Origin: Candidatus Peribacter riflensis
GTDB lineage: Bacteria > Patescibacteriota > Gracilibacteria > Peribacterales > Peribacteraceae
Reading direction: 5' to 3'
Assembly: GCA_001430755.1 (NCBI GenBank)
Contig: CP013062.1
Coordinates: 60,001 to 92,000 of the forward strand
DNA: 32,000 nt
The notes beneath the pieces were generated by a model. It was not told where the DNA came from, did no database searches, and worked only from the letters and a program-made list of their open reading frames with translations. Numbering within the stretch: the first letter of the stretch is position 1; every line of letters starts with the position of its first letter. Shown piece after piece: positions 4,434 through 32,000 of this stretch. A program made the translations under genes and the position numbers.

Positions 4434-4488
4434 TGGTGGACACACTACTCCTTCCAGGAGATTCTTTCACTGCGGACACGGATGGGAC

Positions 4489-6282: not shown

Positions 6283-6393
6283 CACGGTGTGCGGGAGAGG
6301 GAGCGTAAGGGCACCCCCGTTCCTTTCTGATTATCATGGAAAAACGTCCCGATGACAATTGCGCACGGTCCTTCATGGCACTGTGGCGCTGTT

Positions 6394-8937
6394 TCAGCGG
6401 CTCTTGCGCTGATGGAGCGGAGCGAGTGTGGCGCCGCGCACGGTCATGGTGCCGCCGGCTCCGCCGAATCCTACGGCCGGTCCGGCGAGTGGGGGACTAT
6501 CCTTTTCCTTGGTGAGATAGGGATTGCTATCAATCGTTGATGGGGCGACGAGGGTCGCTGACGCGAGGACGGTATTGCGCGCCTTCTCGATGAGGTTCGC
6601 GACGATGCGGACCTGCGGGCCCTCGGGCGTGATGGTGCCCTGACACACGTACTCCCGTCCGTCTTCCTGGATGAGGGGTTGGGTGCGGTGGAGGCGGAAC
6701 GGCGCATTTCCGGCTCTCTGGTCGAAGAGATCAGATCCACTGGCGTAGATGCCAGACCGGTACATTCCTCTCTTGGCGAAATCCGCGTTCATGTTCCCGT
6801 CCCACAGCAGACCGACGTGCCGGCCGGTGGGCAGTGGAACGAGGAAGGCGGCTCCTCCCTGCTGGGATCCGTTATCCGGCGTCCTGCCTGCTTCGGTGCG
6901 CGAGAAGGTGAACGAGAACGTGTAGGGTTTGCCGCTGCGCAGGATCTCCTGCGCTTCCTTTGTCAGGGGGACATGAATGAACGAAATCCATGAATGATGC
7001 CCCGATTTTCCTTCGAGCACCGGAGCGCCATTCACCTCCGAGACCTGCCATGCCGGCCGGAGGACATTGCTGCGCTGCATGAGGTCGGCGGGGCTGCCAC
7101 TGAGCAGGTTCACAGAACCGGGGAGATCCACCGTTTCTATCGAGGTCACAGGAAGAGTCGACTGGCCTGTCTGCCCCTCCTGAGGAGTGATGTGGAGGGC
7201 CAGTGGCAGAACCGCCCCATGTTTCTGCAGAATCGTGAGCCGCAGATCTTTGAGACGTGTGACGACAGCTGGTCCCGCGACTTTCTGCTTACCGATGTCG
7301 CAGCATTCAAGTGCGAGCGCGGCAACGCCGGGCTTGGCGGGATACGCTGTGAGGAGCTCTTGGGCAAACTCCAACAGTTCTTCTGCAGAGAGCATCGCGC
7401 GCCGGTCCGCGCGTGTGGCGAGGTCGCTCAGTGCGGTATCATCCGATTTGCGCAGATAGGCGGTCTGTGCGGCAGACCAGTCGCCGCGCTCGAAACAGGA
7501 AAACTCACCGACTGCCCGGTTCGCTGCGGGGTCGCCGGGAGTCTGCTCCAGAGTTTCGAGGTGCCCGGCGATGTTCTGCCGGATGTAGGTCGCCTCGAGT
7601 TTCGCCACGAAGCGCGTGGCTTCGGTCAGTTGCTGCTTGCTCGTGGAAGGGCGGCCCTGCAGGCGCGAGAGAAAGCGCTTCGCCTCTTCGAAGTTGGCGC
7701 CATCACAGAGATCCCGCGTCACCGTCTGTGCATGCTGCATGACCAGCGCCACGTTGCCATTCTTCTGTCCGGCGGCATCGCGTACGACGGAGGCCGCTTC
7801 GGCCAAGATCACCTCGTCGTCGTCAAATACCTCGCGCATTTCGCGGAGCGCGGCCATGGCGCCATCCAGATCTCCCTTGGCGCGTGCCCTCTGTTCCGCG
7901 ACACGGTAGAGCGCGCACTGTTCCGCCGCATCACGGCTGGCGCGTGCCTGTTCCAGAATTTCTCTGGCCGAGAGTTCGGCGAGTGTCGGGCTCTTGTGCA
8001 AATCTTTGAACGGGGCCAGCTCCTCGGCTGTGGGCATCGGAAGGCGGGCGGCGGGGTTCTGCTCCACAGAGGTTTTCGCTTCGGCTGGCTGAGCGGGAGC
8101 GGGAGACGCGGGGGCAATTTCCGGTTTGGCCGGAACAGTGGCAGGAGTGGGGAGCGACGCCACGGCTACCGGTTCCGCCGGTGTCTCGGCGGGTTTTTCC
8201 GGTTTCGGTTCCGGGGCGGGTGCCGCGGCAACCGGGGAAGGAACGTTCACCGCAACGGGTGTTGCGATTGGGGGCGTCGAATCAGGCGCTTTTGCGGGTT
8301 TCTCGATGGTTGCTGGCGGCAGGGTTTCGCTTTCGGGCATGTGCGCGACAGCCGCCGACACATCAGACTGCTTTGCCGTTTCATGCGGTCGTGTAGCCAT
8401 GAAGAGGGCTCCGGAACCCGCGAGGACGGCTGCGGAAATGCCGGTGACCAGAGGATTTTTCTTCACCCACGCAGCAATGCGCTGGAGCGGCTTCTTCTGC
8501 TCGACGGTGTGTTCCGGTAGGTTCTGCGCAACGGCTGAGCGCGTCGTGTGCGTCTGGTAGAACGCCACCAGTTCCGGATGTTGTGCAAACAGACTCTGGT
8601 TGTATCGCTTGCGCCGCTCGGGATCCGAAAGGCACTTATCCACTTTCTCTATGGCATCTGTGATGCTCTTCGCTTCGTCATGGTCGGGATTTTCCTCATG
8701 CAGGAGCGCCGAGAGCTGTACGATGCGGTCGGTGGCAGCGTCATGCACCCGCTCCGGAATATCGGCGTCGGCCGGGGTGATACCGAGCAGGCTGTAGTAG
8801 TTCAGCGATCCCTCAATGCCGAGCCACTCTCGCACATGTTTCGAGTGCAGGCTCTTGCCATTCCCATTGCCGTTCGGCCCGTGCTCATGCCTGTGGCTAT
8901 GCTCTTCTGGGTGGAACGTGCTAGCCATGCGGTACAT
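6394..8937 (-). CDS. membrane protein with His-rich N-terminus, J-like domain lacking the HPD motif, Pro/Ala-rich linker, helical region and C-terminal beta-sandwich-like domain
   Basis: 856-aa ORF from TTG 8964. ATG candidates at 8937 and 8928; aggaag lies 9 nt upstream of 8928. J-domain-like segment: YYSLLGITPADADIPERVHDAATDRIVQLSALLHEENPDHDEAKSITDAIEKVDKCLSDPERRKRYNQSL. One TM segment, LVTGISAAVLAGSGALFMA. Confidence 0.7.
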   Translation of the reverse strand: MYRMASTFHPEEHSHRHEHGPNGNGNGKSLHSKHVREWLGIEGSLNYYSLLGITPADADIPERVHDAATDRIVQLSALLHEENPDHDEAKSITDAIEKVDKCLSDPERRKRYNQSLFAQHPELVAFYQTHTTRSAVAQNLPEHTVEQKKPLQRIAAWVKKNPLVTGISAAVLAGSGALFMATRPHETAKQSDVSAAVAHMPESETLPPATIEKPAKAPDSTPPIATPVAVNVPSPVAAAPAPEPKPEKPAETPAEPVAVASLPTPATVPAKPEIAPASPAPAQPAEAKTSVEQNPAARLPMPTAEELAPFKDLHKSPTLAELSAREILEQARASRDAAEQCALYRVAEQRARAKGDLDGAMAALREMREVFDDDEVILAEAASVVRDAAGQKNGNVALVMQHAQTVTRDLCDGANFEEAKRFLSRLQGRPSTSKQQLTEATRFVAKLEATYIRQNIAGHLETLEQTPGDPAANRAVGEFSCFERGDWSAAQTAYLRKSDDTALSDLATRADRRAMLSAEELLEFAQELLTAYPAKPGVAALALECCDIGKQKVAGPAVVTRLKDLRLTILQKHGAVLPLALHITPQEGQTGQSTLPVTSIETVDLPGSVNLLSGSPADLMQRSNVLRPAWQVSEVNGAPVLEGKSGHHSWISFIHVPLTKEAQEILRSGKPYTFSFTFSRTEAGRTPDNGSQQGGAAFLVPLPTGRHVGLLWDGNMNADFAKRGMYRSGIYASGSDLFDQRAGNAPFRLHRTQPLIQEDGREYVCQGTITPEGPQVRIVANLIEKARNTVLASATLVAPSTIDSNPYLTKEKDSPPLAGPAVGFGGAGGTMTVRGATLAPLHQRKSR

Positions 8938-8986
8938 CTTCCTGCTGGAGCTCCGAATTGTCAAGTTTGCCTCACATCAGCCCATT

Positions 8987-11320
<2,334 letters not shown>

Positions 11321-16397: not shown

Positions 16398-16518
16398 CAG
16401 ACGTTCTGCACCTGCATGGAACGCCCTGACCGAACCTGTGTGGCGCAGGGCCGGACAAAACATGAAGGTGTCCTAAGCGCTTTACACAGCCAAAAATTCG
16501 GGTAGAGTGCAAGTTTGC

Positions 16519-18780
16519 ATGACTGACCTCCCCGCCAGCATCGAGGCGTATCTTACGGAAGCAGGATTCTCTGCGACCGAGCTCCTGGTGCTCAAAAAGC
16601 TCCTCGAGGGCGAGGCGCTGACACTCAGGGAACTGGCCGCCAAAACGGGCAAATCGACGGGGGTTCTGGATCTCGCCGTGAAGAAGCTCCTCAGCCGCCG
16701 CATCATCAGCCGCGAGATGGTGAATGACACGCCCAAGATGCTCCTCAAGTCTCTGGATGCGGTCATGAAGTGGGTGAAGGACGATACCGAGGAGAAGCTC
16801 AAAGCCATGAAGAGCCGTGCCCTGGACTTCGAATCGTTCATTGCGTCGCTCAAGCGCGAGAGCAAGCGGCCCGAGATGGAGTACTTCGAGGGCGAGGAGG
16901 GCATCAAGAAGGCCTACATGAAGCTCCTGGAGGTTTCTGTGAAGGAGTTTCTGCACTACCGCCCCGTCACGATGAAGGAGGAGGAAGACCCGTTGGCGGC
17001 CTTCCGCGTGCAGTACTTCCGCGAGCGGCACAAGCGGAGCATTTTCTCGCGCGTCCTGGCGCCCTCCACCTCTCTCGGGCGGCGCTTTCAGTCGCGCGAC
17101 GTGTTCGAGTATCGCGAGACACAGCTCATCAAAGACGAGGAGTTCCCCATCACGTTCGAAAAGATCATCGTCGGCGAGACGGTGGCGTGCTTCAACCATG
17201 CGGAGCAGCGCGCGTGCTTTCTCAAGTATCCCGAATTGGCGCACACCGAACGCACCATGTTCGAGCTGCTGTGGCGCCGTGCCAAAGAGCCGCCCACGCA
17301 GCCGCAGACCGTGGCTCTCACCCTCCCGCAATCTTCCCAGCCGGTGATCTCTTTGAGCACGCGGTCACTCTCGAGCCTGCGTGAGTTCTTCTTAAGCCGC
17401 AATAGCGTGGCGCTCTTCTTTGGGGGTGCCGTGCTGGCTGCGGGCATTACCTATGGGCTGTGGTGGCATACGTATAATTTGAATCGCGAGCGGGTGCGGG
17501 AACGGGCCATGGCGATTGCCGCCACTGCCGCCATGGAGTTTGATGCCAGAGACATCGAACAGCTTCGTACGAAGGAGGATGTGAAGAAGCCGGAGTTTAT
17601 GAAGCTCGTGACGCACCTGCGCGAGATCAAGACACGCAATGAGAACATCCGATTTGTCTACATCGATCGTCCCATTGAGGCGAAGGACGCATCATGGGCA
17701 GTGGTTGCAGATGCCGATTACGGCACGCCGGATGAGGATCTGGACGGGGACGGTATTATCGAGGATTTTGAGCAGCTCACTATGCCCGGGCAGATCTATC
17801 CACATGTGGATCCGCTCTTTCAGGAGCGACTCCATAGACCGGCCGCAGACTTTCTCAGTGACGAATGGGGTGCATACTGCGATGCATCAGCTCCTATTTT
17901 CGATGCGGAAGGGAAGGCCATAGCTGTTCTTTTCGTCGATATCGATCTGCAGCAGGTGCGGGATCTCACTTCACAGTCATTCAAGGTAGCCTATGTCTTC
18001 CTTGGGCTTTTCCTCTTTTTCGTCTTCATCCGTCTCGCGGCCTTCAATCGGCCGCTTTTCTTTGAGTTGCTCAAGGTGTTGCGATCTAGGGGAGTGCTGA
18101 TGATTTTGGGGGTGTGTGCGCTGATTTCGCTTGGGGTGACGTGGGGGATGTATCGGTATAGCTACAATCTCAATCTCCAGCGTGTACGTGAGCAGGTAAC
18201 GGCAATCGCTGCAACCGCTGCACCAGAGTTTGATGTGGAAGACTTGGATCAGCTTCATACGTGGCATGATGTTGAAAAAACCGTTTACAAAAAAGTGGTG
18301 GCACAGCTGCAGGATATTCGGAAGAGAAATGCGACGGTGAGATATGTCTACATATTGCGGGCAACGGATGATCCGTATTTCTACGAGTTCGTGGCAGATG
18401 CAGATTCACTCAATATTCGATCATTTTCAGATTTTTCCGAAGATGGACTGAGGAATGACATCAGCCCACCTGGATATTCATATTATGATTATGAGGGAGT
18501 CAAATCCTCACTTATGAAGGCTATGCATGAACCATTTGCAGATCATCAGATGGTTTACGATTTATGGGGAGAATGGATTTCGGGGCATGCGCCTATTAAA
18601 GACAAGAATGGCAAAATGAATGCAATTATTGGAGTTGATGTAGATGCGAGTAAGGTTGACGCCCTATCAAGGCAGGCATTCTCACCAATTTTTCTGTTTG
18701 CCAGCCTGTTTTCTCTTTTGGTTTTTGTACGATTTATCACATTCGTGAGTCCGCGATTTATAAAACATCTTCGGAGATAA
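16519..18780 (+). CDS. TrmB-family HTH regulator fused to two tandem TM-bounded extracytoplasmic (Cache/PDC-like) sensor domains
   Basis: N-terminus LTEAGFSATELLVLKKLLEGEALTLRELAAKTGKSTGVLDLAVKKLLSRRIISRE (wHTH), followed by a TrmB-type effector-like region. Four hydrophobic segments (~17401-17470, ~17986-18045, ~18091-18150, ~18687-18745) bracket two homologous ~170-aa domains that share FD..D(I/L)(E/D)QL, (I/V)R(F/Y)VYI, (F/V)VADAD, WG, API.D..GK and VD(I/V)D. ATG 16519 preferred over GTG 16507. Confidence 0.8.
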   Translation: MTDLPASIEAYLTEAGFSATELLVLKKLLEGEALTLRELAAKTGKSTGVLDLAVKKLLSRRIISREMVNDTPKMLLKSLDAVMKWVKDDTEEKLKAMKSRALDFESFIASLKRESKRPEMEYFEGEEGIKKAYMKLLEVSVKEFLHYRPVTMKEEEDPLAAFRVQYFRERHKRSIFSRVLAPSTSLGRRFQSRDVFEYRETQLIKDEEFPITFEKIIVGETVACFNHAEQRACFLKYPELAHTERTMFELLWRRAKEPPTQPQTVALTLPQSSQPVISLSTRSLSSLREFFLSRNSVALFFGGAVLAAGITYGLWWHTYNLNRERVRERAMAIAATAAMEFDARDIEQLRTKEDVKKPEFMKLVTHLREIKTRNENIRFVYIDRPIEAKDASWAVVADADYGTPDEDLDGDGIIEDFEQLTMPGQIYPHVDPLFQERLHRPAADFLSDEWGAYCDASAPIFDAEGKAIAVLFVDIDLQQVRDLTSQSFKVAYVFLGLFLFFVFIRLAAFNRPLFFELLKVLRSRGVLMILGVCALISLGVTWGMYRYSYNLNLQRVREQVTAIAATAAPEFDVEDLDQLHTWHDVEKTVYKKVVAQLQDIRKRNATVRYVYILRATDDPYFYEFVADADSLNIRSFSDFSEDGLRNDISPPGYSYYDYEGVKSSLMKAMHEPFADHQMVYDLWGEWISGHAPIKDKNGKMNAIIGVDVDASKVDALSRQAFSPIFLFASLFSLLVFVRFITFVSPRFIKHLRR

Positions 18781-18848
18781 TTAAACTCAAGGATTTAGCT
18801 TTCAATATTGGCTTTATTGATTACATTGTTCTGAACATTAAGTGCAAA

Positions 18849-19817
18849 TTACTTTCCAAGAACGTAAGAGAAAATTAATGGAGCAACAATTGTTGCATCG
18901 GAATTGATCACAAAACTTGGAGTGTTCTTGGTGACTTTGTGCCAAGTGATCTTCTCTTTCGGAGTACAGCCAGAATAGGAACCGTAAGATGTAGTAGAGT
19001 CAGTAATCTGAGCATAATATGCCCAATGGGGACATTCCTTGCCCAAATCTAGAAGAATACAAGGCACACAACACAGGGCAAAATCTCCGGCAGTACCACC
19101 ACCGATTTGGAAAAAACCAACAGATGATTTTTTGCTTATTTCCTGATACCACTGCATCAAGTGTGCGAACTGTTCTGTGCCGTGTCTGATTGCAGCATGG
19201 CTTCGGATAGTTCCATCCATTACACGAGCAGCAAAAATGTTGCCCAAAGTTGAATCTTCCCAACCAGGGGAGTAGATCGGAATTTTCTTTTCCCATGCCG
19301 CAGCCATCCAAGAATGCGCAAAAGGTACCTGATTAATGTTATTTAGAAATCCCTCATCAAACAGCCGGAAGAGATACTCGTACGGGAAGTGGTGTTCTTC
19401 TTTTTTTGCAGCTTCTGCCCAGTATTCAATAAGTTTGTTTTCTACTTTTCGCATGACATTTTCTGGAATACATACATCAGTGACGCGATTCATGCCACGG
19501 TCGCGCAAGGCCTCCTCATCATCGGGCGTGAGATTGTCATAATCTGGAACCATTTCATACTCGTTATGAGCGATAAGGTTGAAGATGTCCTCTTCCAGAT
19601 TTGCAGCTGAGCAGGAAATAGCATGAATCTTGTCTTCCCGGATCATTTCTGCAAGTGAAATGCCGATTTCGGCCGTACTCATTGCTCCTGCCATAGCAAG
19701 GAACATTTTCCCTCCTTTCTTTTCATGGTCTACCCATGCCCGCGCAGCCCGCAGCGTTGTAAACGCGTTGAAGTGCTTGAAGTTTTCTTCCATAAATGAG
19801 GAGATTGGCTTCGGCAT
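18849..19817 (-). CDS. deoxyhypusine synthase family protein (homospermidine-synthase-like)
   Basis: 322 aa. RDRGMNRVTDVCIPENVMRKVENKLIEYW matches the DHS INRIGN..VPNENY region. FFQIGGGTAGDF matches the GGG loop. The C-terminal YSGCTPKEKITWHKV keeps the catalytic-Lys context (SWGK in eukaryotic DHS). Confidence 0.85.
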   Translation of the reverse strand: MPKPISSFMEENFKHFNAFTTLRAARAWVDHEKKGGKMFLAMAGAMSTAEIGISLAEMIREDKIHAISCSAANLEEDIFNLIAHNEYEMVPDYDNLTPDDEEALRDRGMNRVTDVCIPENVMRKVENKLIEYWAEAAKKEEHHFPYEYLFRLFDEGFLNNINQVPFAHSWMAAAWEKKIPIYSPGWEDSTLGNIFAARVMDGTIRSHAAIRHGTEQFAHLMQWYQEISKKSSVGFFQIGGGTAGDFALCCVPCILLDLGKECPHWAYYAQITDSTTSYGSYSGCTPKEKITWHKVTKNTPSFVINSDATIVAPLIFSYVLGK

Positions 19818-19885
19818 GATTTATTGGGAACTATTGCAAATGATAGAACTCGAATACTAGTTTGCAACTTCCAAATTAGTATTAA

Positions 19886-20347
19886 TCACAGGATCTGTTG
19901 CATTTGTTCTACTTTCTCTCCAGATCCTCGGATATCCAGTACTGATCGTTTGTCACCCGAAGAATTATGGGAATTGATTGCACGATTTATAAAAGTGGCC
20001 TGCCACAAACCTAAAGGTAGGTGCTTTGTTAACGTGATCAGCGCCACCTTCCAGTCAAATCCTTGGCAGCTATATATATCCATGTGAATATGTGGTTGCC
20101 CATTTGGTTCATCGAAATAATGACCAGAGATGTGGCTTGTTGTAATTGGTTGTAGGAATGACCAACCAGGTGCGAGAAGATCGGTTGCAGGATAGATTTC
20201 CAATGGACCGAGCTTCTTCATTTTTAATGTACTCAGCAAATCTTCAATGAGTGCGTGAATCATTTTCTCATTTTCTGAGTTATCGAATGGCTTTAGCAAA
20301 TGTGCATCCAAGATAAAATGGTGATGAAGCAGAGCAATACTAGACAT
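19886..20347 (-). CDS. S-adenosylmethionine-decarboxylase-fold (SpeH-like, pyruvoyl) protein, divergent paralogue 1
   Basis: GWSFLQPITTSHISGHYFDE...HIHMDIYSCQGFD aligns by eye with the prokaryotic AdoMetDC core (..VVISESHLTIHTWPE...IDLFTCG). ATG 20347 has ggagaa 11 nt upstream. The track start 20383 is a TTG. Confidence 0.72.
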   Translation of the reverse strand: MSSIALLHHHFILDAHLLKPFDNSENEKMIHALIEDLLSTLKMKKLGPLEIYPATDLLAPGWSFLQPITTSHISGHYFDEPNGQPHIHMDIYSCQGFDWKVALITLTKHLPLGLWQATFINRAINSHNSSGDKRSVLDIRGSGEKVEQMQQIL

Positions 20348-20443
20348 AAGGTGAAATTCTCCATATATCGGATAAGAAGTCAATTATATTGTGACGACGA
20401 ACTGGTACTGGCTTTACGAATTAACTCGGTTTACATTGCTATT

Positions 20444-20869
20444 ATGAAATATATCTGGGCGTCAATATTACTATTGTTACTGGTTGGAGGGGGGTTTGCT
20501 TTTTCAAGTTATTTAAGACTTGCCCATGAAGAGCAATTAGTTGCCACAGCTCAGTTAAGGAACAGAGACCGGAAGGAACATTTACGAACATTAGTATCTG
20601 CTATTAAGCAGTATATGAGTGATCACAACAAACAAGCGCCAGGAATTTTGGATAGTACTCAAAAAAATATTTGTAGAACTGACGTTAAGGTTGATTGCAC
20701 AGATTTAGTAGACCTTTCCAAGCTTACAGAAGAATATCTTGTTACTCTTCCAATTGATCCATTGGTTTCATCGGGCGCAAGTACAGGTTATGCAATTCAA
20801 ATAGATGGTAATATTATCACCGTCAAAGCCATATATGCGGAGGACGAAGATGTATCAATTTCTTTCTAA
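20444..20869 (+). CDS. membrane-anchored pilin/pseudopilin-like protein without a canonical prepilin cleavage motif
   Basis: 141 aa from ATG 20444. Anchor MKYIWASILLLLLVGGGFAFSSYL, then LRNRDRKEHLRTLVSAIKQYMSDHNKQAPG, which resembles the R(D/N)..R..DL..(I/L)..A(I/L)..Y..D helix of type IV pilin-like proteins. There is no G/FTLIE processing site. Confidence 0.5.
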   Translation: MKYIWASILLLLLVGGGFAFSSYLRLAHEEQLVATAQLRNRDRKEHLRTLVSAIKQYMSDHNKQAPGILDSTQKNICRTDVKVDCTDLVDLSKLTEEYLVTLPIDPLVSSGASTGYAIQIDGNIITVKAIYAEDEDVSISF

Positions 20870-20881
20870 TTATGGTATAAT

Positions 20882-22330
20882 TTGTTTGTGAAACTTATAC
20901 AAACAACAGCTATCTGGTTTCTTGATAAAGGCAAGAGTTATTTGGTGCTAATTCTCTGTGGGCTCATTGCTGGAGCAGCAACGATTTCTCTATTTGGATA
21001 TACAAGAGATCTGCTGCTTACGCGCCTAGAGGACAAACTTATTGCGATCAGTTCGACTGCTTCACTTTTATTTGATGAGAAAGAAATCGAGCAGTTGCAT
21101 GAATTGGGTGGAGAGAGTGTCAATACTGATTTGTATCGGAAGACAGTATTAACATTGCGGAAAATTAAACGAAGAAATTCGGACATCAGATATGTCTACA
21201 TTTTTCACAGGACAGATGATCCGAGCCTACTCAAATTTGTGGCTGATGCAGATATGATCGCTCTGAAGACAGAATTGAATTTCACCGGTGAATCACAAGA
21301 TGAGAGTGATTTTCCCGGTACCGATTACGATGTGACCGAATCTCCAGGATTGCTTAGTGGTAATGCGTTCATCGAACCTACGATTGATGATCTTTATCAG
21401 GATGACTGGGGTTACGTGTTTTCAAGTTATGCACCTATCCGAGATAACCAAGGGGTGCCTTCCGATTCAATTATTGGTATCGATGTTGATGTAACACAAT
21501 ATCTCAATAATGTCTTTGCCACGCTCATACCTTTTACTGCGTTTATTGTGGCGTTATTCATTCTACTTGGTCTTCTAACTTTCTTCCTCCTTAGGATATG
21601 GGGATCGCGTGTGGACCTCCTCAAAGACCTCGACCGCCAAAAAGACGAACTCATCAGTATCGTCAGTCACCAACTGGCAACACCGGTGACCTCGGTGAAG
21701 TGGTACCTCGAGATGCTGCTGGATGGAGATTCCGGTGAACTGAACGAGGAACAGAAGAAACAGCTCATGACCATGCAGGGGGTGACAGAGGACCTTGTGG
21801 ACCTGGTGGGTATGATTCTGGATGTTTCGCGCATTCAGCTGGGCCGCATGAAGGTGGATCGCGGGCCGTTGGATCTGGGCACCTTCTTTACCGAAGTGCT
21901 GGCCGTGATCGAGCCCAAGGCGACCATGAAGAAGCAGCAATTCATCAAGAATATCCCGGGCAAGCTGCCCGTGGCGTCGCTGGATAAGCGTCTGATGCGC
22001 ATGACGCTCGAGAACCTGCTCAGTAATGCCGTCAAATACACGCCGGAGGGCGGAAAGGTGGAGCTGAATGTCACGCTCACAGATCACACGCTCCGCTACG
22101 AGGTGAAGGATACGGGTTGCGGCATCCCCAAGGAGGATCAAGAGAAGATCTTCGGCAAGCTCTTCAGGGCCACCAACGTGCGCAATACGGAGGGCAATGG
22201 TCTCGGCCTCTTCGCCGCCAAGGGCGCCGCCGAGGCGCAGGGTGGCAAAGTGTGGTTCGAGAGCGAATCGGGTAAAGGCACCACGTTCACCGTGGAAGTG
22301 CCGCTTGAGGAGGTGAAGGAGCAGGAGTAA
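20882..22330 (+). CDS. sensor histidine kinase with a periplasmic domain homologous to the TrmB-fusion sensor domains
   Basis: Two TM segments flank a domain containing FDEKEIEQLH, IRYVYIF, FVADAD, DDWGY, APIRDNQG and GIDVDV. H-box ISIVSHQLATPVTSV. HATPase motifs NLLSNAVKYTP and GNGLGLFAAKGAAEAQGGKVWFESESGKGTTFTVEVP. Start is TTG 20882 or GTG 20888. TGgTATAAT at 20873-20881 ends immediately upstream of TTG 20882, so a leaderless GTG-20888 start is possible. Confidence 0.9.
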   Translation: MFVKLIQTTAIWFLDKGKSYLVLILCGLIAGAATISLFGYTRDLLLTRLEDKLIAISSTASLLFDEKEIEQLHELGGESVNTDLYRKTVLTLRKIKRRNSDIRYVYIFHRTDDPSLLKFVADADMIALKTELNFTGESQDESDFPGTDYDVTESPGLLSGNAFIEPTIDDLYQDDWGYVFSSYAPIRDNQGVPSDSIIGIDVDVTQYLNNVFATLIPFTAFIVALFILLGLLTFFLLRIWGSRVDLLKDLDRQKDELISIVSHQLATPVTSVKWYLEMLLDGDSGELNEEQKKQLMTMQGVTEDLVDLVGMILDVSRIQLGRMKVDRGPLDLGTFFTEVLAVIEPKATMKKQQFIKNIPGKLPVASLDKRLMRMTLENLLSNAVKYTPEGGKVELNVTLTDHTLRYEVKDTGCGIPKEDQEKIFGKLFRATNVRNTEGNGLGLFAAKGAAEAQGGKVWFESESGKGTTFTVEVPLEEVKEQE

Positions 22331-25289: not shown

Positions 25290-25721
25290 ATGCCACAGGT
25301 CTTTGTTCCAACCATGAAGGAATACAATTCCAGCGGTGCCTGGGGGATGCTGACTTCCATCGATGTTCACGGGTGCAATCCCGCAACCGTCCGCAGCGCA
25401 GAGGCCATCAAACTGTTTACGCAGCAGATGTGCGAGCTGATCGATATGAAGAGGTACGGCGAGACGCAGGTCGTCAACTTTGGCGATGATCCGCGGGTAC
25501 ACGGGTATTCCATGGTGCAGTTGATCGAAACATCGCTGGTGTCGGGCCACTTTGCCGAAGAGACGAATTCCGTCTTCCTCGATGTGTTCAGCTGCAAGTA
25601 CTACGATGCTGCCAAGGCCGCCGCGTTCGCTGCAAAGTTTTTCGGCGGTAAGGACTACAGCGCGACCACCCTGCTCCGCGGGAAATTCGAAAAGAGCTCC
25701 CTTCCCGATAAAAAGCAGTAG
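25290..25721 (+). CDS. S-adenosylmethionine-decarboxylase-fold (SpeH-like, pyruvoyl) protein, divergent paralogue 2
   Basis: AWGMLTSIDVHGCNP (N-terminal strand), HGYSMVQLIETSLVSGHFAEE (processing-site region) and VFLDVFSCKYYD (conserved Cys region). 143 aa, typical of the family. Confidence 0.72.
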   Translation: MPQVFVPTMKEYNSSGAWGMLTSIDVHGCNPATVRSAEAIKLFTQQMCELIDMKRYGETQVVNFGDDPRVHGYSMVQLIETSLVSGHFAEETNSVFLDVFSCKYYDAAKAAAFAAKFFGGKDYSATTLLRGKFEKSSLPDKKQ

Positions 25722-26320: not shown

Positions 26321-26554
26321 AGTGAGGGGTGCGGCGGGCGGGAGCGACGGAGCACCTGCGTCGATGAGGCAGGTGAGGACCGCGCAGGACCGGGGCCGCT
26401 GGTGGCAGGAGGTATCCAAGAGACAGTATGGAACGCGAGAGGGGCGTGCATACTAGCGGCTGAAAAAATGGAATCGAGCAATTTTGGTTTACGGGCTGTA
26501 CGTAATTGTATACGTGACCAAAAGGGCGTTCTGGTGGGTGGTGGAACGCAAGGG

Positions 26555-26676
26555 TTCATGAGAGACAAACCTACGGTTTTTCTCTCATGAGCTCTCTTTT
26601 CCCTTTAGCGGTGTCGCTCAGCTACGGGTCCCGTCAGAGCCACCCGCAGCTTCGCGACGATTATTGAAATAATTTG
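26555..26676 (+). repeat. two-hairpin structured element, copy 3 (orphan, inverted relative to copy 2)
   Basis: tcatgagaga-c-aaacc-tac-ggttt-t-tctctcatga (26556-26590), gctctcttttccctttagcggt, gtcgc-tc-agctacggg-tcccgtcagagcca-cccgcagct-tc-gcgac (26613-26658), then gattattg aaataattt. Confidence 0.7.
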
Positions 26677-26721
26677 TAAGAAGCAGAAATTTCCCCAATG
26701 CGATCTTTTTCCGTATCAATG

Positions 26722-27390
26722 TCACTTTAGCAGCGCGAATGACTTCGTGAACGCGTCGAAGTAGCGCAGGTTGCGATCGAAGCGGTCTGCGATCGCGCTA
26801 AATTCCAGCACGATGATGCGGTTGCCCGAGGGGATGCGGATCTGGCGGACTTTGCACGTCTTGCTCTGGCAGCGGTGTGTGAACGTACTCACGAGCGTTT
26901 CTTTCTTTTGCCAGGTGGAACCCTCGGATGACAGGGCTTCGGGCATCAGGAGAAAACGCCCTCCCTCGAATTCTTCCGCGTAGAATGGGGCGCGCGAGAA
27001 GTTCTCGAAATCCTGCCGCATGCGGTCCATTGTCGCGGCCTTGCCGAGAGGCGCGATGCCCACCGAGAGCGTCGTCCCCAGATAGGCGGGGCTTTCAAAA
27101 CGCGTCCAGTCGTATTGCTGCCGCGTAGTGCCTGTTTCTTTGTCTTCGTACGTGAGGCTCCAGTCTTCGGGATACTCTACGCTCCACCCTCCGAGCACAT
27201 CGCGGTACGCGCGTAGTGGAGTAGAAGGCAGGGTCGGAATCTTGATCCGCATGTCCTTGCGCGCTTTCGCCTGCGTGGCGCGGTAAGTTGGCCGCGACGA
27301 TGAGGCCTGCGGAAGGAACCGGGCGGATGCCATAACGGGGCAACCGAGGAGGAAGATGACGGAGAGGGCGAGAAAGGAGGAGGGACGCAT
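26722..27390 (-). CDS. putative lipoprotein, function unknown
   Basis: The signal peptide MRPSSFLALSVIFLLGCP carries a lipobox-like LLGC. The 222-aa mixed alpha/beta-looking mature part has no recognised motif. Confidence 0.65.
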   Translation of the reverse strand: MRPSSFLALSVIFLLGCPVMASARFLPQASSSRPTYRATQAKARKDMRIKIPTLPSTPLRAYRDVLGGWSVEYPEDWSLTYEDKETGTTRQQYDWTRFESPAYLGTTLSVGIAPLGKAATMDRMRQDFENFSRAPFYAEEFEGGRFLLMPEALSSEGSTWQKKETLVSTFTHRCQSKTCKVRQIRIPSGNRIIVLEFSAIADRFDRNLRYFDAFTKSFALLK

Positions 27391-27408
27391 GGGGGAGGGG
27401 GAATGGAG

Positions 27409-27957
27409 CTACGGGGCTGCCTTTCCGAAGGAGAAGGAGTTTCGTAATTCGGGGTACTTTTCCCAGGCTTCAAACTTCAGTGTGCATCCCGCACGGATAA
27501 CGGCGTTACGGATAGGGAGGCAATCCGCAGCGCTACGATTTCTGTGCGCCCGCAGCAAATCACACCAATCCAGGCGTAGAGGATCAGATTGCGGTTTACT
27601 GCACTCGTCCCATTCAAAGAATCCAGCATCCATGTGATCTTCGTATTCCTGCGCAGTGACGTCATTGATGCAGCTCAGGCCATACTCGCTCGGCATCAGC
27701 AGTGCGCAGGCGGAGGGATCATGAGAGAGTTCTGCATACTCTCGTATGCATCTATTCCTCAATTCTCGAGTCGTTGGCCTGAACCAAGGATCCAGTGTGA
27801 CAAAAAGATAACAATCTTTGGCAGGCCTGTTTTCATTCACCAGTTTCATTGGAAGCTCCTCCGGCGAGCGGGCATGTTCGTAATAGAATGTGTGTAATCC
27901 GACGAAACCAACTGCAATGAGGACGACAGTGATGATGAGGAGCCTGTGTCGATGCAT
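27409..27957 (-). CDS. membrane-anchored Cys-rich protein, paralogue P1 (DPSAC..LLMPS.YG.SC family)
   Basis: TM anchor LLIITVVLIAVGFVGL, 8 Cys, shared motif HDPSACALLMPSEYGLSCIND. ATG 27957 (GTG 27969 in the track). Confidence 0.7.
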   Translation of the reverse strand: MHRHRLLIITVVLIAVGFVGLHTFYYEHARSPEELPMKLVNENRPAKDCYLFVTLDPWFRPTTRELRNRCIREYAELSHDPSACALLMPSEYGLSCINDVTAQEYEDHMDAGFFEWDECSKPQSDPLRLDWCDLLRAHRNRSAADCLPIRNAVIRAGCTLKFEAWEKYPELRNSFSFGKAAP

Positions 27958-28062
27958 AAAATATGACACGAAAAGACGGATTAGTAATTGGTACTTGTGC
28001 TTTCTCCTTCCTCCAAAGGAATTTGATCATAGATATGCGTATGATGTGGGATGGTGCTATGA

Positions 28063-28695
28063 CTACTCAATTCGGTATGCGTAGAGGATATCGTCTATCC
28101 ATGATCCATAAAAAAACATGGTTGAAGAATAGAGTTTTTTCTGCCCATTAGAAGCAATATTTCCAAGCCCAATTTCATACCAGTCCCTTCTCCAACGCAT
28201 TCCACTGCTTGGCCATACCTTTTTCCATCCCGTGGAAGACAATTCTCTGTCGTAGAATTGTGCAATTCCCTCAAAAGGTGTTTCATCCTCAAAAGTAATA
28301 GAAAGCATCGGTTCATTGTCAAAACCATCTCCGCCGTTGTACAACTGTTTTTTTTCGATGGAAATGGCGTAGTGTGGCATCAAATTTTCAGCGATTTTTT
28401 CTCGCTGCAATTGCAAATACTGCTGTTTGGCTTTGTGGCTGAATACGGTTAGACCGATGAGTAGCGTGAAGAGAGCGAATGACAGAACAAACCTAAATGG
28501 CGGCAGACGTCCACGCCATCCGAGCAAAGCACCAACTATTACTGATAACAACGGTATCCAGAACAGAACCCACAACAGTATTGGATGCTCGAATGGGAGA
28601 GTAAGTGCAAGAAGCGCTAGGCCGAACCCAAGGAAACCACCAAACACGGCGCTTCTCCTGCGATTTCCTACAGTTCTTGTTACGTTTGGAATCAT
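28063..28695 (-). CDS. 3-TM membrane protein with C-terminal soluble domain
   Basis: 210 aa. Positively charged N-terminus (GNRRRS), three hydrophobic segments, then a ~115-aa domain. Its ATG (28695-28693) overlaps the upstream gene stop (ATGA), suggesting translational coupling. Confidence 0.7.
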   Translation of the reverse strand: MIPNVTRTVGNRRRSAVFGGFLGFGLALLALTLPFEHPILLWVLFWIPLLSVIVGALLGWRGRLPPFRFVLSFALFTLLIGLTVFSHKAKQQYLQLQREKIAENLMPHYAISIEKKQLYNGGDGFDNEPMLSITFEDETPFEGIAQFYDRELSSTGWKKVWPSSGMRWRRDWYEIGLGNIASNGQKKLYSSTMFFYGSWIDDILYAYRIE

Positions 28696-29345
28696 GACCC
28701 GTAAGAAATGAGACTTGAAATATAACGAAGAACGAAGGGTGCCGCATAATTATCGATGGTACTGTGCGTTTGCGAATCCTGTATGCCATCGCAATCAATC
28801 TGTATCATCGGGATTGATCCATTATTATTCATTGCCATGCCATTAAGTGTACCATCTGAGGCGATGCCAACATTTGATTGGTAAATATTTAGCATAGTAC
28901 ATGTGTTTACCGGAATAAATGGTTCCGGGAAACCACAAGCAAGGTTTCCTTGGGTAACTGCATCAACATATGCCGATCCAGTTATCGTGATATTGCCGTG
29001 ATTTTTCGCTATCCATTGACTGAATTTATGCACCATTCCTCCGCCCCAGCTGTAACCAACAAGAATGATATTTGTGAGTTGCGGGTTATTCTGAAGTCTG
29101 GATTCTACGAAGGTTTGCGCATTTTGCAGGGCTTCATCGGCAGTGGGTGACATAATCTCAAACCAAATCAGATCCCAGCACTCGTTCGCTGGCCTCCCGT
29201 TCTTTACGAGATACTCGGCCAGATCCCACGGTGCCCAATTGATGTAGGGCCGGTGCCAGCCAAAGATTGTCATCCAACCATAGACGATCAGAGCTAAGAC
29301 AGTCAGGGCGAGAGTGCCAATGAGGTATGGGGCACGGAATCTCAT
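28692..29345 (-). CDS. chimeric protein: 69-aa anchor module of the Cys-rich family fused to a 5'-truncated lipase-like alpha/beta-hydrolase segment (GYSWG)
   Basis: Residues 1-69 are identical to P3. From residue 70: DEALQNAQTFVESRLQNNPQLTNIILVGYSWGGGMVHKF (GxSxG nucleophile elbow at Ser99), later IDCDG and SQTHSTID. Only ~28 aa precede the nucleophile, so the oxyanion-hole strands seen in the large lipase (VWVVVHG..VATVDW) are missing. Confidence 0.65.
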   Translation of the reverse strand: MRFRAPYLIGTLALTVLALIVYGWMTIFGWHRPYINWAPWDLAEYLVKNGRPANECWDLIWFEIMSPTADEALQNAQTFVESRLQNNPQLTNIILVGYSWGGGMVHKFSQWIAKNHGNITITGSAYVDAVTQGNLACGFPEPFIPVNTCTMLNIYQSNVGIASDGTLNGMAMNNNGSIPMIQIDCDGIQDSQTHSTIDNYAAPFVLRYISSLISYGS

Positions 29346-29373
29346 ACTAGTTTCCTAGGATAGGGGAACCATT
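29138..29373 (-). repeat. 236-bp direct repeat, copy X (234/236 identical to 30601-30836)
   Basis: Hand alignment gives a constant offset of 1463 nt. There are two mismatches, both synonymous on the minus strand (TCA/TCG Ser, CTG/CTA Leu). Confidence 0.95.
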
Positions 29374-30010
29374 ATTTTCTTACGAGTGCACGGACTCCAA
29401 CCAGACAAGCTGACCGGATATTTGCGTTTTCGATCTTCGAGCACGCTTCCATGTTGATTTTTTTCTTTGCCACTTCGTGGTAGCACTGATCGATGAAATC
29501 TCGTGTGGCTACGAGAGAGGAGCAATCCTTCTTTTCGTCATAGAAGGCGATGCGTGCAACTGCACAGCAGGTGTTATTTTGTGTGGCAGCGTCACCATGC
29601 ACACACTGTGCCAATGGAGCAATGATTCCATTGCCTCGGACTTCAGGCGGCTCTTTGAAATCAAACAAGCACGGCTGCTTGTCTGTTGCTGCCCCCAAGC
29701 ATGACCATCCGTAACTGCTCGGCATCAGAAGCTCGCAGGCAGAGGGGTCGTGCGTGAGCTTGGCGTAGATGTAGATGCAGAGCCTTCTTTTTTCGGCCAA
29801 GGAAGGCCCCATAGTCGGCATGGTCTGTTGAAGTTTTCTACAGCGCGTGGGATCACCCTTCTCTGAAGCAATGGCCTGCGCAAGCTCTGAGGGCGAGATA
29901 TCGACGGGATAGCCAATCATCTGGAGCACTAAACCGCGTCCAATGAGAAGGACTATGCCGATGACGGGCAAGGCGGCAACTATGCCGAGAACAAGCAGGA
30001 GCTTCCGCAT
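29372..30010 (-). CDS. membrane-anchored Cys-rich protein, paralogue P2
   Basis: TM anchor LLLVLGIVAALPVIGIVLLIG, 12 Cys. PSELAQAIASEKGDPTRC and RRLCIYIYAKLTHDPSACELLMPSSYGWSCLGA parallel P3. Confidence 0.75.
   Translation of the reverse strand: MRKLLLVLGIVAALPVIGIVLLIGRGLVLQMIGYPVDISPSELAQAIASEKGDPTRCRKLQQTMPTMGPSLAEKRRLCIYIYAKLTHDPSACELLMPSSYGWSCLGAATDKQPCLFDFKEPPEVRGNGIIAPLAQCVHGDAATQNNTCCAVARIAFYDEKKDCSSLVATRDFIDQCYHEVAKKKINMEACSKIENANIRSACLVGVRALVRK
29689..29734 (-). repeat. 46-nt perfect repeat inside P2 (identical to 30493-30538 in P3)
   Basis: ctgcccccaagcatgaccatccgtaactgctcggcatcagaagctc in both genes. It encodes ELLMPSSYGWSCLGA. Confidence 0.9.
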
Positions 30011-30133
30011 GTGACGTGCTTAGGGGAGGTACGATCCGGGGCCAGAGGATGGCGGCTGGATCTCTCTGTACACGATGAATATTGTTACGGGGTGGCCTGT
30101 GAAACGACGCAGAGAGAAAAGCACGAGTGGTTA

Positions 30134-30808
30134 CTATCGAGCGAAAGACCAATTCTGAGAGTATTGCTGCCACGCATTAATTTCCATTTCACAAAGCTTT
30201 CGTTTCTTTTCATTTGGCATCTTGGCACAGAGAGAAGGATCTTTCATTTTAAAGGCATATCGTCTCTCGCAGATTTCCCGCAAGCCAGGCGGATCGGTGG
30301 AGATCTTGTCGCACTCATACACGTTCGGCAACGAAGCAGAACGCTCTTCATGGCACCAATCGCGGAGGATTCGTTGATCATAGGCATTACAATCATCGAT
30401 GCCCAAGTTTGGCGAGAAGACGTTATATGCTCCGCAGTTTATTTTCTCTTTGGTGCTTCCACAGCCAACGCCTTCCCAGAGTTTGCCCTTCACTGCCCCC
30501 AAGCATGACCATCCGTAACTGCTCGGCATCAGAAGCTCACATGCGGAGGGATCTTTGGCGGTTTTGGCGTACGAATAAATGCACGATGCTCTTTGTTCTG
30601 CGGCAGTGGGCGACATAATCTCAAACCAAATCAGATCCCAGCACTCGTTCGCTGGCCTCCCGTTCTTTACGAGATACTCGGCCAGATCCCACGGTGCCCA
30701 ATTGATGTAGGGCCGGTGCCAGCCAAAGATTGTCATCCAACCATAGACGATCAGAGCTAAGACAGTTAGGGCGAGAGTGCCAATGAGGTATGGGGCACGG
30801 AATCTCAT
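30134..30808 (-). CDS. membrane-anchored Cys-rich protein, paralogue P3
   Basis: TM anchor YLIGTLALTVLALIVYGW, 12 Cys. ASCIYSYAKTAKDPSACELLMPSSYGWSCLGA. ATG 30808 lies 1 nt after the stop of the upstream lipase gene. Confidence 0.75.
   Translation of the reverse strand: MRFRAPYLIGTLALTVLALIVYGWMTIFGWHRPYINWAPWDLAEYLVKNGRPANECWDLIWFEIMSPTAAEQRASCIYSYAKTAKDPSACELLMPSSYGWSCLGAVKGKLWEGVGCGSTKEKINCGAYNVFSPNLGIDDCNAYDQRILRDWCHEERSASLPNVYECDKISTDPPGLREICERRYAFKMKDPSLCAKMPNEKKRKLCEMEINAWQQYSQNWSFAR
30493..30538 (-). repeat. 46-nt perfect repeat inside P3 (identical to 29689-29734)
   Basis: See the partner entry at 29689-29734. Confidence 0.9.
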
Positions 30809-30836
30809 ACTAGTTTCCTAGGATAGGGGAACCATT
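30601..30836 (-). repeat. 236-bp direct repeat, copy Y
   Basis: Covers the last 8 sense codons plus stop of the large lipase gene (NGSPILGN*), 1 nt, and codons 1-69 (plus 1 nt) of P3. Confidence 0.95.
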
Positions 30837-32000
30837 TTCATCTTGCGAATAGAACTGGTAGGCGTTTGCTATCCATGCCTGCTTTCCGTTATCCGCTCCA
30901 CTCGTGAATGTCGTCAACGACGGGTTGGCATAGAAGCAGCCTTCCCAATTATTCTCCCGCGCGCTGAATTCCGCAGCATTGGAACGGAGATTGGGCAGGG
31001 AAAATCGGTTTGCTATTACATCGCTAGGATTCTCCTTCTGTCTCCTCAAGAGTCCTGAGAAGAGAGATACGGCAAATCCGTGTTCATTGTAGGCATCGCG
31101 GAGTTCATCGGCAGTTTCAATTCCAAGCGCTGTAAAATAGTGTTGTGAAGCGACCATCTGTGCGGCAGCGGCGTCCCACGATCCCTGTTCGTAATTTTCG
31201 GGAGCGACGATGCTGAAAGCGTACTGCGCCGTGAGTGCGCGATTCCTGTCTCCGAATGTGCTTGAATGGAACGCGTACGAGTTCGCCGCGATGTTGGCGA
31301 ATGAGAAGTTGGGATCCTCGATTCCTTTGTACTTTCCTCCACCCAGCAGCTTGGAATCCGCCGCCGGATCCAGCGCGATCAAGGTCTGTACTCCGCCCGG
31401 TGTCCGCTTGCCAATTTCGTATGCCACGTATGCACCCCAGCTGTGGCCCACGAGGCAGATATTCTGCGTGCTGAAGCCAGCCGCCTGCAATTGATTGGTA
31501 ACCCATGTGCCCACGCTCTCAATCCAGCGTGAACCTTCCAGGCCGATGGGCGTGGCATTATCAGCTGCCCCGTCTCGCCAGTCCACGGTGGCGACTTGTG
31601 CGCCCAATGCATGAAGATTCTTAGTCAATTCCGCGATCTGACTACTCTCTTCACTATTCCCTCTCCCATGCACCACCACCCAGACGGGCTTGGAGGGATC
31701 GAGTTCTGACACTTTGTTGTAGTCAGTGATTCGTTGTCCGTTTTCAAACTCCGCCACACTCATGCTCACCGGCATTGCCACATCCCTCCCTTCGATACTG
31801 ACCATCCCCTCAATCTTCTGCGACCGATAGGGTTTGATTTCATACTGCACCGAAGTTGCAGAAGGCGCACAGTCAAATGTTGAATCGTCCCTCACGGTGA
31901 TCGTATATGTCCCCGGGAGCAGTGCGAGACTGACAGATTCCGCCGAGGCCACGGACTTGCCGGATGTGTAGGGTCCGACGGTGTGCCCGTCCACAGTAGT
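30810..32000 (-). CDS. lipase-family alpha/beta hydrolase domain protein (5' end beyond the right edge of the window)
   Basis: KPVWVVVHGRGNS, VATVDW, ICLVGHSWGAYVAYEIG (GHSxG), TLIALDPA and AFHSSTFG follow the pancreatic-lipase-family order GHSLGAH...LDPA...H. The track start 31994 is a GTG, and the two codons upstream of it (to position 32000) are sense codons, so the gene probably continues upstream. Confidence 0.8.
   Translation of the reverse strand, partial: TTVDGHTVGPYTSGKSVASAESVSLALLPGTYTITVRDDSTFDCAPSATSVQYEIKPYRSQKIEGMVSIEGRDVAMPVSMSVAEFENGQRITDYNKVSELDPSKPVWVVVHGRGNSEESSQIAELTKNLHALGAQVATVDWRDGAADNATPIGLEGSRWIESVGTWVTNQLQAAGFSTQNICLVGHSWGAYVAYEIGKRTPGGVQTLIALDPAADSKLLGGGKYKGIEDPNFSFANIAANSYAFHSSTFGDRNRALTAQYAFSIVAPENYEQGSWDAAAAQMVASQHYFTALGIETADELRDAYNEHGFAVSLFSGLLRRQKENPSDVIANRFSLPNLRSNAAEFSARENNWEGCFYANPSLTTFTSGADNGKQAWIANAYQFYSQDENGSPILGN

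Follow-up and report, generated by a model that had tools for sequence, protein, structure and literature searches.

We analyzed a window of 32,000 nt from contig CP013062.1 of Candidatus Peribacter riflensis (assembly GCA_001430755.1), and all positions are given in the numbering of this window. One end of it carries, on the reverse strand, a lipase gene followed by an array of genes for small, Cys-rich, membrane-anchored proteins, which are probably the immunity proteins of a polymorphic lipase toxin. The lipase part (30810-32000) includes an open reading frame (ORF) at 30810-31994 that matches PF00151 and is the 3' end of the gene for a secreted protein of 1770 aa. It encodes a pre-toxin region and a C-terminal domain of the pancreatic lipase type, with the Ser in GHSWG, the Asp in ALDPA, and the His in EHG. 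The ORF of P3 (30134-30808; 224 aa, 12 Cys), the predicted cognate immunity protein of this lipase, starts 1 nt past the lipase stop codon. Further downstream lie P2 (29372-30010; 212 aa, 12 Cys), which has no lipase gene of its own and is a candidate orphan immunity gene, and P1 (27409-27969; 186 aa, 8 Cys), the minimal member of the family and the last of the array. Between P2 and P1, on the same strand, are a chimeric gene (28692-29345; 217 aa), in which a P3-like leader is joined to a truncated alpha/beta-hydrolase, and a gene for a 210-aa protein with three hydrophobic segments (28063-28695). An earlier model-based reading of the same DNA (the sequence-only reading) had described an alternation of the Cys-rich genes with lipase-like genes, which the PF00151 lipase and the truncated hydrolase bear out. 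It had also described a GC content lower than that of the flanking chromosome. This was confirmed, with values of 0.43-0.47 at 27501-29500, of 0.55-0.63 in the flanks, and a minimum in the cassette at 28063-29345. It overlooked that the lipase ORF, lacking an upstream stop, continues past the end of the window, and that the row contains a 253-nt direct repeat at 97% identity (29133-29385 and 30596-30848).

P1, P2, and P3 are paralogues with about 31% identity in alignment and share the invariant block DPSAC.LLMPS.YG.SC. The Cys counts, the single N-terminal anchor, and the common motif previously reported for them were all recovered. A profile search returned 234 proteins, all annotated as hypothetical, and every named match belongs to Candidatus Peregrinibacteria, Peribacteraceae, Peribacter, or an unclassified Patescibacteria-group bacterium. 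Peribacteria are tiny groundwater bacteria, probably symbiotic, and the family, previously undescribed, is by its sequence matches seen almost only among them. Among 120 aligned members, 113 have exactly one N-terminal hydrophobic segment, as P1-P3 do, and the anchor is preceded by basic residues. Eight Cys (P3 positions 56, 76, 90, 102, 166, 180, 194, and 206) are kept in 99-100% of these members, the variable extra Cys are located between P3 positions 102 and 166, and the total count is even in 95 of the 120. Since P3 residues 66-110 and 170-196 are homologous (hhalign probability 92.5%), the ectodomain consists of two 4-Cys units flanking a variable insert. The new family is defined by the single anchor, the eight conserved Cys in two units, and the central motif. 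The conserved Cys, the even counts, and the anchor placed after basic residues support the disulfide-bonded extracytoplasmic domain proposed by the sequence-only reading, and they fit an ectodomain that would face outward and carry disulfides.

The AlphaFold2 model of P3 (pLDDT 94.2, pTM 0.85) is mostly helical, with one short beta-hairpin. The domain had not been recognized before, and the family is new: P1-P3 gave zero matches in Pfam (E <= 1), NCBIfam (E <= 0.1), and PDB sequences, and a Foldseek search of the P3 model against PDB and BFVD gave nothing at E < 1, with listed PDB TM-scores of 0.27 or less. None of these searches gave a match to a characterized domain with a housekeeping role, which the sequence-only reading had named as evidence that would speak against it. 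An exhaustive search with hidden Markov models retrieved 2791 representative proteins at E <= 1e-3. Five long proteins among them (P0208, P0242, P0248, P0251, and P0255; 640-1030 aa) carry 7-12 tandem copies of a two-Cys repeat of about 36 residues that is related to the 4-Cys units of the family, and at least three such proteins begin with a lipoprotein-type signal. These long tandem-repeat proteins were unmatched in Pfam and PDB. They point to a large unannotated superfamily of Cys-stapled helical repeats, to which the search links the small family described here.

To study the genomic context we used 42 genome loci, nearly all from Peribacteria metagenome-assembled genomes (MAGs), plus the window, and 19 metagenome loci found through the lipase alone. 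The metagenome scan was run with the 12 closest lipases, the alignment of 42 sequences being too diverse for scanning. The family genes are clustered on the same strand in the 42 genome loci, and a homologue of the window lipase lies directly 5' of a family gene in 36 of them. Seen from the lipase, a family member follows directly on the same strand in 44 of 44 lipase genes (genome loci and window), and the reverse test in the metagenome loci gave 23 of 23, so that 67 of 67 lipase genes are paired when the 61 loci and the window are pooled. The gap between the two genes ranges from -67 to +45 nt and is mostly between -4 and +26 (44 tabulated pairs); a 4-nt overlap is frequent. The recurrent linkage with hydrolase genes, whose absence the sequence-only reading had named as counter-evidence, is found throughout. 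There are no lipases without a partner. Surplus partners per lipase occur in loci L019 (1:5-6) and L033 (1:4) and in the window, and a lone partner gene lies among housekeeping genes in L037. Four of the contigs with lipase/partner or toxin cassettes were binned outside the lineage, in MAGs of Micrarchaeota (L017), Gammaproteobacteria (L018), Akkermansia (L024), and Kiritimatiellales (L027). These are likely cases of misbinning, but may instead reflect transfer to other lineages.

An arrangement of this kind recalls the lipA-lif operons, in which lif lies downstream of the lipase gene and its product is N-terminally anchored. The partner would then act as a steric chaperone similar to Lif, on which the folding of the secreted lipase outside the cytoplasm would depend, and the gene order, the anchor, the tight coupling of the two genes, and the mainly helical ectodomain of the predicted model are all consistent with a foldase. 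We nevertheless consider this very unlikely. The partners match neither Lipase_chap/Lif nor any other Pfam family, pancreatic-type lipases are not known to require Lif, up to 5-6 partner genes accompany one lipase while others are solitary, and half-genes of the partner are shuffled independently of the lipase (see below).

The lipase domain of the window matches Pfam PF00151 with 45.7 bits against a cut-off of 27 (E = 7e-12) and pancreatic lipase in the PDB (1lpa) at 2.8e-9. A score above the gathering threshold and a Ser-Asp-His triad in the GxSxG, LDPA, and H contexts place it in this family. Its AlphaFold2 model (pLDDT 86.8) has lipoprotein lipase, pancreatic lipase, and hornet venom phospholipase A1 (PLA1) as best Foldseek matches (E about 1e-10). 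A search for homologues of the lipase returned 17 proteins. The triad is intact wherever it is readable, including in short orphan-like lipases, and one of 42 sequences is cut at the Ser position. The full-length gene of the window lipase corresponds to positions 3889-9201 of locus L062, and its 1770-aa product has an N-terminal LSFESLESRQMMSG motif, two LamG domains, coiled coils, and the lipase at the C-terminus. Homologues of about 2700 aa in other loci have a signal peptide, WD40 propellers, and a C-terminal lipase. A start motif LE.LE.R.(M/L)(M/L)S, which is not a classical signal peptide, is found at L062 3889-3990 and also in L023, L035, L036, and L040. It resembles the "Planctomycete extracellular" family PF07595 below threshold (E = 0.011) and may be an export signal of the Candidate Phyla Radiation (CPR).

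The resemblance of the lipase model to animal enzymes brings in another explanation, in which the partner is a tether or cofactor, i.e., a membrane-anchored lipase-binding protein that stabilizes, positions, or activates the lipase on the Peribacter surface for the harvest of host membrane lipids. Lipoprotein lipase and pancreatic lipase have Cys-rich protein partners of their own, GPIHBP1 and colipase. The strict one-to-one adjacency and the co-inheritance with the lipase suit any specific binding partner, and Peribacter lacks fatty-acid synthesis (PMC4736985). However, the partners resemble neither colipase nor GPIHBP1 in sequence and fold, and surplus and lone partner genes occur without a lipase. 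In addition, the loci hold RNase A-type and signal-less short lipase cassettes, which are typical of conflict systems, and a C-terminal lipase tethered to the membrane of its producer would face self. We regard a role as tether or cofactor as unlikely.

The sequence-only reading had also suspected gene conversion on the basis of a 46-nt identity between P2 (29689-29734) and P3 (30493-30538), in the part of each gene that codes for the motif. The identity is exact and not extendable. It covers 15 consecutive identical codons, whereas elsewhere the same codon is used in 18 of 46 identical residues, and P1 differs synonymously within the same motif block (27688-27738), which matches its P2 and P3 counterparts at 73-76%. 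A DNA-level constraint acting at the motif across the family, such as a recombination signal or an RNA element, was considered and rejected, as the synonymous identity at the motif in 70 family genes is only marginally raised (0.42-0.51 versus about 0.28-0.50 elsewhere). By these comparisons, the 46 nt represent a local conversion or recombination tract rather than a coding constraint. The suspicion of gene conversion is thus supported and can be extended: the motif is the junction where the N- and C-halves of the partners are swapped, and the P3 block is such a recombination junction.

The correlations across loci display this mosaicism. Lipase identity correlates with that of the partner N-half (Mantel r = 0.40, reached in 0 of 2000 permutations) and not with that of the C-half (r = 0.00), and the N- and C-halves do not correlate with one another (r = -0.02). 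Near lipases (0.90 and 0.76) have equally near N-halves (0.88 and 0.75) and unrelated C-halves. Three types of N-half and three types of C-half were found in all nine combinations. We mapped the breakpoints by comparing the window with L001 and L006, which come from a single sister genome. Relative to L001, the pre-toxin region is 65-86% identical, the lipase core together with the N-half of P3 only 29-49%, and the sequence from the motif on again 65-80%; against L006, the pattern is the opposite. These reciprocal profiles indicate that the cassette exchanged is the lipase core plus the partner N-half, with breakpoints at about 31650 and at the motif, at about 30540. The lone partner of L006 (P0004) joins the N-half of P3 to the C-half of P1, with its junction in the P1 motif block. 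Relative to L006, the window has 2.8 kb more, located between two motif copies, and the C-half of P2 is 74.7% identical in nucleotides to L039 4280-4662. Compared with L006, nucleotide identity is 72-81% in the locus and 79-90% in the flanks, which gives only weak support to a divergence of the locus far beyond that of the remaining genome.

Such extensive shuffling could in itself be the function, if the partners were variable surface proteins for adhesion or evasion, unrelated to the lipase, and their linkage a by-product of a recombination hot spot. The nine combinations and the uncorrelated halves are what one would expect, related Cys repeats form long lipoproteins elsewhere, and Cys-rich, strain-variable surface proteins were reported in the Peribacter genome paper (PMC4736985). 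Yet the conservation of the motif is at the level of protein, not DNA, and a coincidental linkage is too unlikely because every one of the 67 lipases is followed by a member, often so closely that the stop codon of one gene overlaps the start codon of the next. This explanation is highly improbable in our view.

The loci also contain additional toxin cassettes. Short lipase ORFs (295-413 aa) that lack a signal peptide, each with its own partner, were found in L001, L005, L010, L014, L017, L025, and L031. They mostly start within the conserved pre-lipase region, and in the four short/main pairs that were aligned (L001, L005, L010, and L025) each short ORF matches the C-terminal region of its main protein. 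Short cassette ORFs downstream of partner genes (L002 2149 and 5169, L005 4160, L014 1754, L001 2889, and L010 7261) open with a basic leader that is loosely conserved (e.g., MPSRRxSRHxxVFxMxMEI). In two loci, large ORFs end in a CdiA-CT RNase A domain (PF18431; L027 54-2324 and L002 2149-3915), and the one in L002 is, in the region flanking this domain, 59.6% identical over 230 aa to the lipase-bearing protein of L005, from the same MAG. The RNase A ORF of L027 is followed by a small ORF for a soluble protein of 114 aa, in a locus of the same type as that of the lipase cassettes.

A second type of cassette, made of a hydrolase with the motif GYSWGG and a multi-transmembrane protein, occupies 28063-29345 of the window at a GC content of 0.44-0.46. 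Its hydrolase is the 217-aa chimera, whose first 69 residues are those of P3 and come from the 253-nt repeat, while the remainder represents the last two thirds of a hydrolase of the second type and lacks the N-terminal strands. Copy 1 of the repeat spans the start of the chimeric gene and the spacer between P2 and the hydrolase. Copy 2 takes in the first 213 nt of P3 plus about 40 nt upstream, where it overlaps the final codons of the lipase gene; the central stretch of about 225 nt has one mismatch. The chimera is probably a recombination remnant or an orphan toxin fragment. Fuller hydrolases of this type lie beside a multi-transmembrane protein in L002 (46-1393) and L010 (3129-4512). The 210-aa protein, whose gene has the lowest GC content of the locus (0.44), recurs as their partner, and the two may form another toxin/immunity pair.

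By the definition of Zhang et al. 2012 (PMC3482391), the locus is organized like that of a polymorphic toxin, and the Cys-rich proteins occupy the position of immunity proteins, a conclusion that the sequence-only reading did not reach. A large secreted multidomain protein ends in a toxin domain, this C-terminal toxin varies on related proteins (RNase A versus lipase, and exchange of the core), and standalone cassettes of toxin and partner, homologous to the main gene, lie downstream. Polymorphic toxin systems are known to include lipase-like alpha/beta-hydrolase toxins with dedicated immunity families (PMC3482391). The pairing, the architecture, the mosaicism with its breakpoints, and the absence of a known homologue are direct observations. 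Considering the obligate order of toxin and partner, the surplus and solitary partners, the orphan-like cassettes, the alternative toxins on related scaffolds, and the topology, we infer with moderate confidence that the P1-P3 family consists of membrane-anchored, outward-facing immunity proteins of a polymorphic lipase toxin. In this system, a giant secreted protein, which has an N-terminal export motif, coiled coils, and either LamG or WD40 domains, carries a catalytically intact lipase of the pancreatic-lipase/PLA1 type at its C-terminus. The partner would be a type-II membrane protein with its ectodomain on the outside of the cytoplasmic membrane of the producer, where it would bind and neutralize the lipase domain, be it from the same cell or from sister cells. 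Both this binding and the inhibition, like the topology and the disulfides, are predictions. The loci diversify by exchange of cassettes in which the lipase core and the partner N-half move as a unit, with one breakpoint where the lipase core begins and the other in the DNA coding for the motif. This exchange would give rise to chimeric partners, to orphan partners such as P2 and P1, and to remnants such as the 217-aa chimera.

Several points weigh against a role in immunity. The correlation between lipase and partner N-half could be explained by physical linkage without co-adaptation, and the C-half, including the variable insert, swaps independently of the lipase, which is unexpected if the whole ectodomain sets specificity. 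The short lipase ORFs have start codons and a basic leader, and it is not certain that they deserve the label of orphans. The lipases all belong to one homologous family and may be host-directed or nutritional enzymes instead of interbacterial toxins, and, by analogy, the animal lipases of the same fold use their Cys-rich partners as cofactors or tethers, not as inhibitors. The lipase may also, or instead, serve the acquisition of host lipids. That the lipase-partner pair is the lipid-acquisition apparatus of a bacterium unable to make fatty acids is a possibility to which we give little credence. An adhesin-like giant would put a PLA1-type lipase on the host, and the partner would act as receptor, guard, or cofactor of this lipase on the membrane of the symbiont, much as GPIHBP1 or colipase do. 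If this were true, the shuffling of half-genes at the motif would be a built-in diversification of the interface as hosts change.

Other features of the region are less directly related to the lipase and its partners. Downstream of P1, on the reverse strand, lies a possible accessory gene for a secreted protein of 222 aa (26722-27390). Secreted proteins of about 220 aa with a weak PsbP-like match recur 3' of the partner in other loci (L039 4716-5336, L003 3228-3962, L029 3253-4062, and L015 10871-11608), and this one is missing in the sister locus L006. A scan of 26400-32000 for promoters and terminators gave signals at shuffle expectation. A second low-GC island (18000-21500, GC 0.38-0.44), without a blastn match in L006, contains a deoxyhypusine synthase homologue and an S-adenosylmethionine (AdoMet)-decarboxylase-like gene (19886-20383), of which another copy lies at 25290-25721. 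Three large ORFs have no Pfam match (4489-6285, 598 aa; 6394-8964, 856 aa; 16507-18780, 757 aa).

The type of system is already known. We found nothing specific in the literature on lipases of Peregrinibacteria or Patescibacteria and on polymorphic toxins of CPR. The literature searched describes neither the partner family with its fold, nor the PF00151-type toxin on giant proteins of CPR bacteria, nor the occurrence of such a system in CPR, nor the crossover inside the partner gene. CPR bacteria (Patescibacteria) are an abundant group, most of them uncultured, and are thought to live on other cells. With regard to their means of attacking hosts, acquiring lipids, and protecting themselves, the locus offers a concrete pair of effector and partner: a lipase/PLA1 that looks catalytically intact, on a giant surface protein, and a disulfide-rich partner confidently modeled with a new fold. 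It also provides a new candidate immunity family, whose members are now "hypothetical" in annotation pipelines, and a natural example of cassette exchange with the downstream crossover within the partner gene. The position of this crossover suggests that the N-half may be the lipase-specific part of the partner.

We compared the system with those it resembles. Helicobacter cysteine-rich proteins and other Sel1-like repeats also have helical repeat units with paired Cys. They differ by their Cys spacing (C-x11-14-C here) and gave no Foldseek match, and the Sel1 profile has no Pfam match in P1-P3 or in the long repeat proteins. Lif shares the N-terminal anchor, the extracytoplasmic helical domain, and the position of the gene just 3' of the lipase, but it is not Cys-rich and does not form arrays or mosaics, and the sequences were unmatched: P1-P3 do not fall in Lipase_chap in Pfam (E <= 1) or NCBIfam (E <= 0.1). 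Colipase and GPIHBP1 are, as here, disulfide-rich proteins that partner lipases of this fold family, and GPIHBP1 is membrane-anchored too. These are, however, animal cofactors or tethers with a colipase or three-finger fold, whereas the partner described here is mainly helical and lies in a toxin locus; it has no Pfam match to colipase or Ly6-uPAR (GPIHBP1) and no Foldseek match in the PDB at E < 1.

The type VI secretion system (T6SS) effectors Tle1-5, with their Tli proteins, present the same combination of a membrane-targeting lipase and an immunity protein that is encoded next to it and works in the extracytoplasmic space, and have arrays of extra immunity genes. We did not place our system among them: only PF00151 and generic alpha/beta-hydrolase matches were obtained in Pfam, no T6SS domains were found in the scanned neighbors in the window and the loci, and the P3 model has no similarity to solved Tli structures (Foldseek, PDB). 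The orphan cassettes of contact-dependent inhibition (CDI) and Rhs systems (cdiA-CT/cdiI) are likewise tandem short cassettes of toxin and partner that keep upstream homology, and the CdiA-CT RNase A domain of the sister loci adds to the likeness; neither CdiB/two-partner secretion proteins nor Rhs repeats were detected among the proteins scanned. Tox-ABhydrolase-1 and -3 with Imm66 and Imm69, described by Zhang et al. 2012 (PMC3482391), share with the present system a large secreted multidomain protein whose C-terminal toxin can be exchanged, a small gene directly downstream, short cassettes of toxin and partner with upstream homology, and alternative toxins on related scaffolds. Here, in contrast, no trafficking domain was recognized (RHS, filamentous haemagglutinin, LXG, or PAAR), the toxin is of the PF00151 pancreatic-lipase type, the partner belongs to a new Cys-rich membrane-anchored family without a Pfam match, and the organism is a CPR bacterium. 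Also unlike in those systems, the downstream breakpoint lies inside the partner gene, one half of which moves with the toxin.

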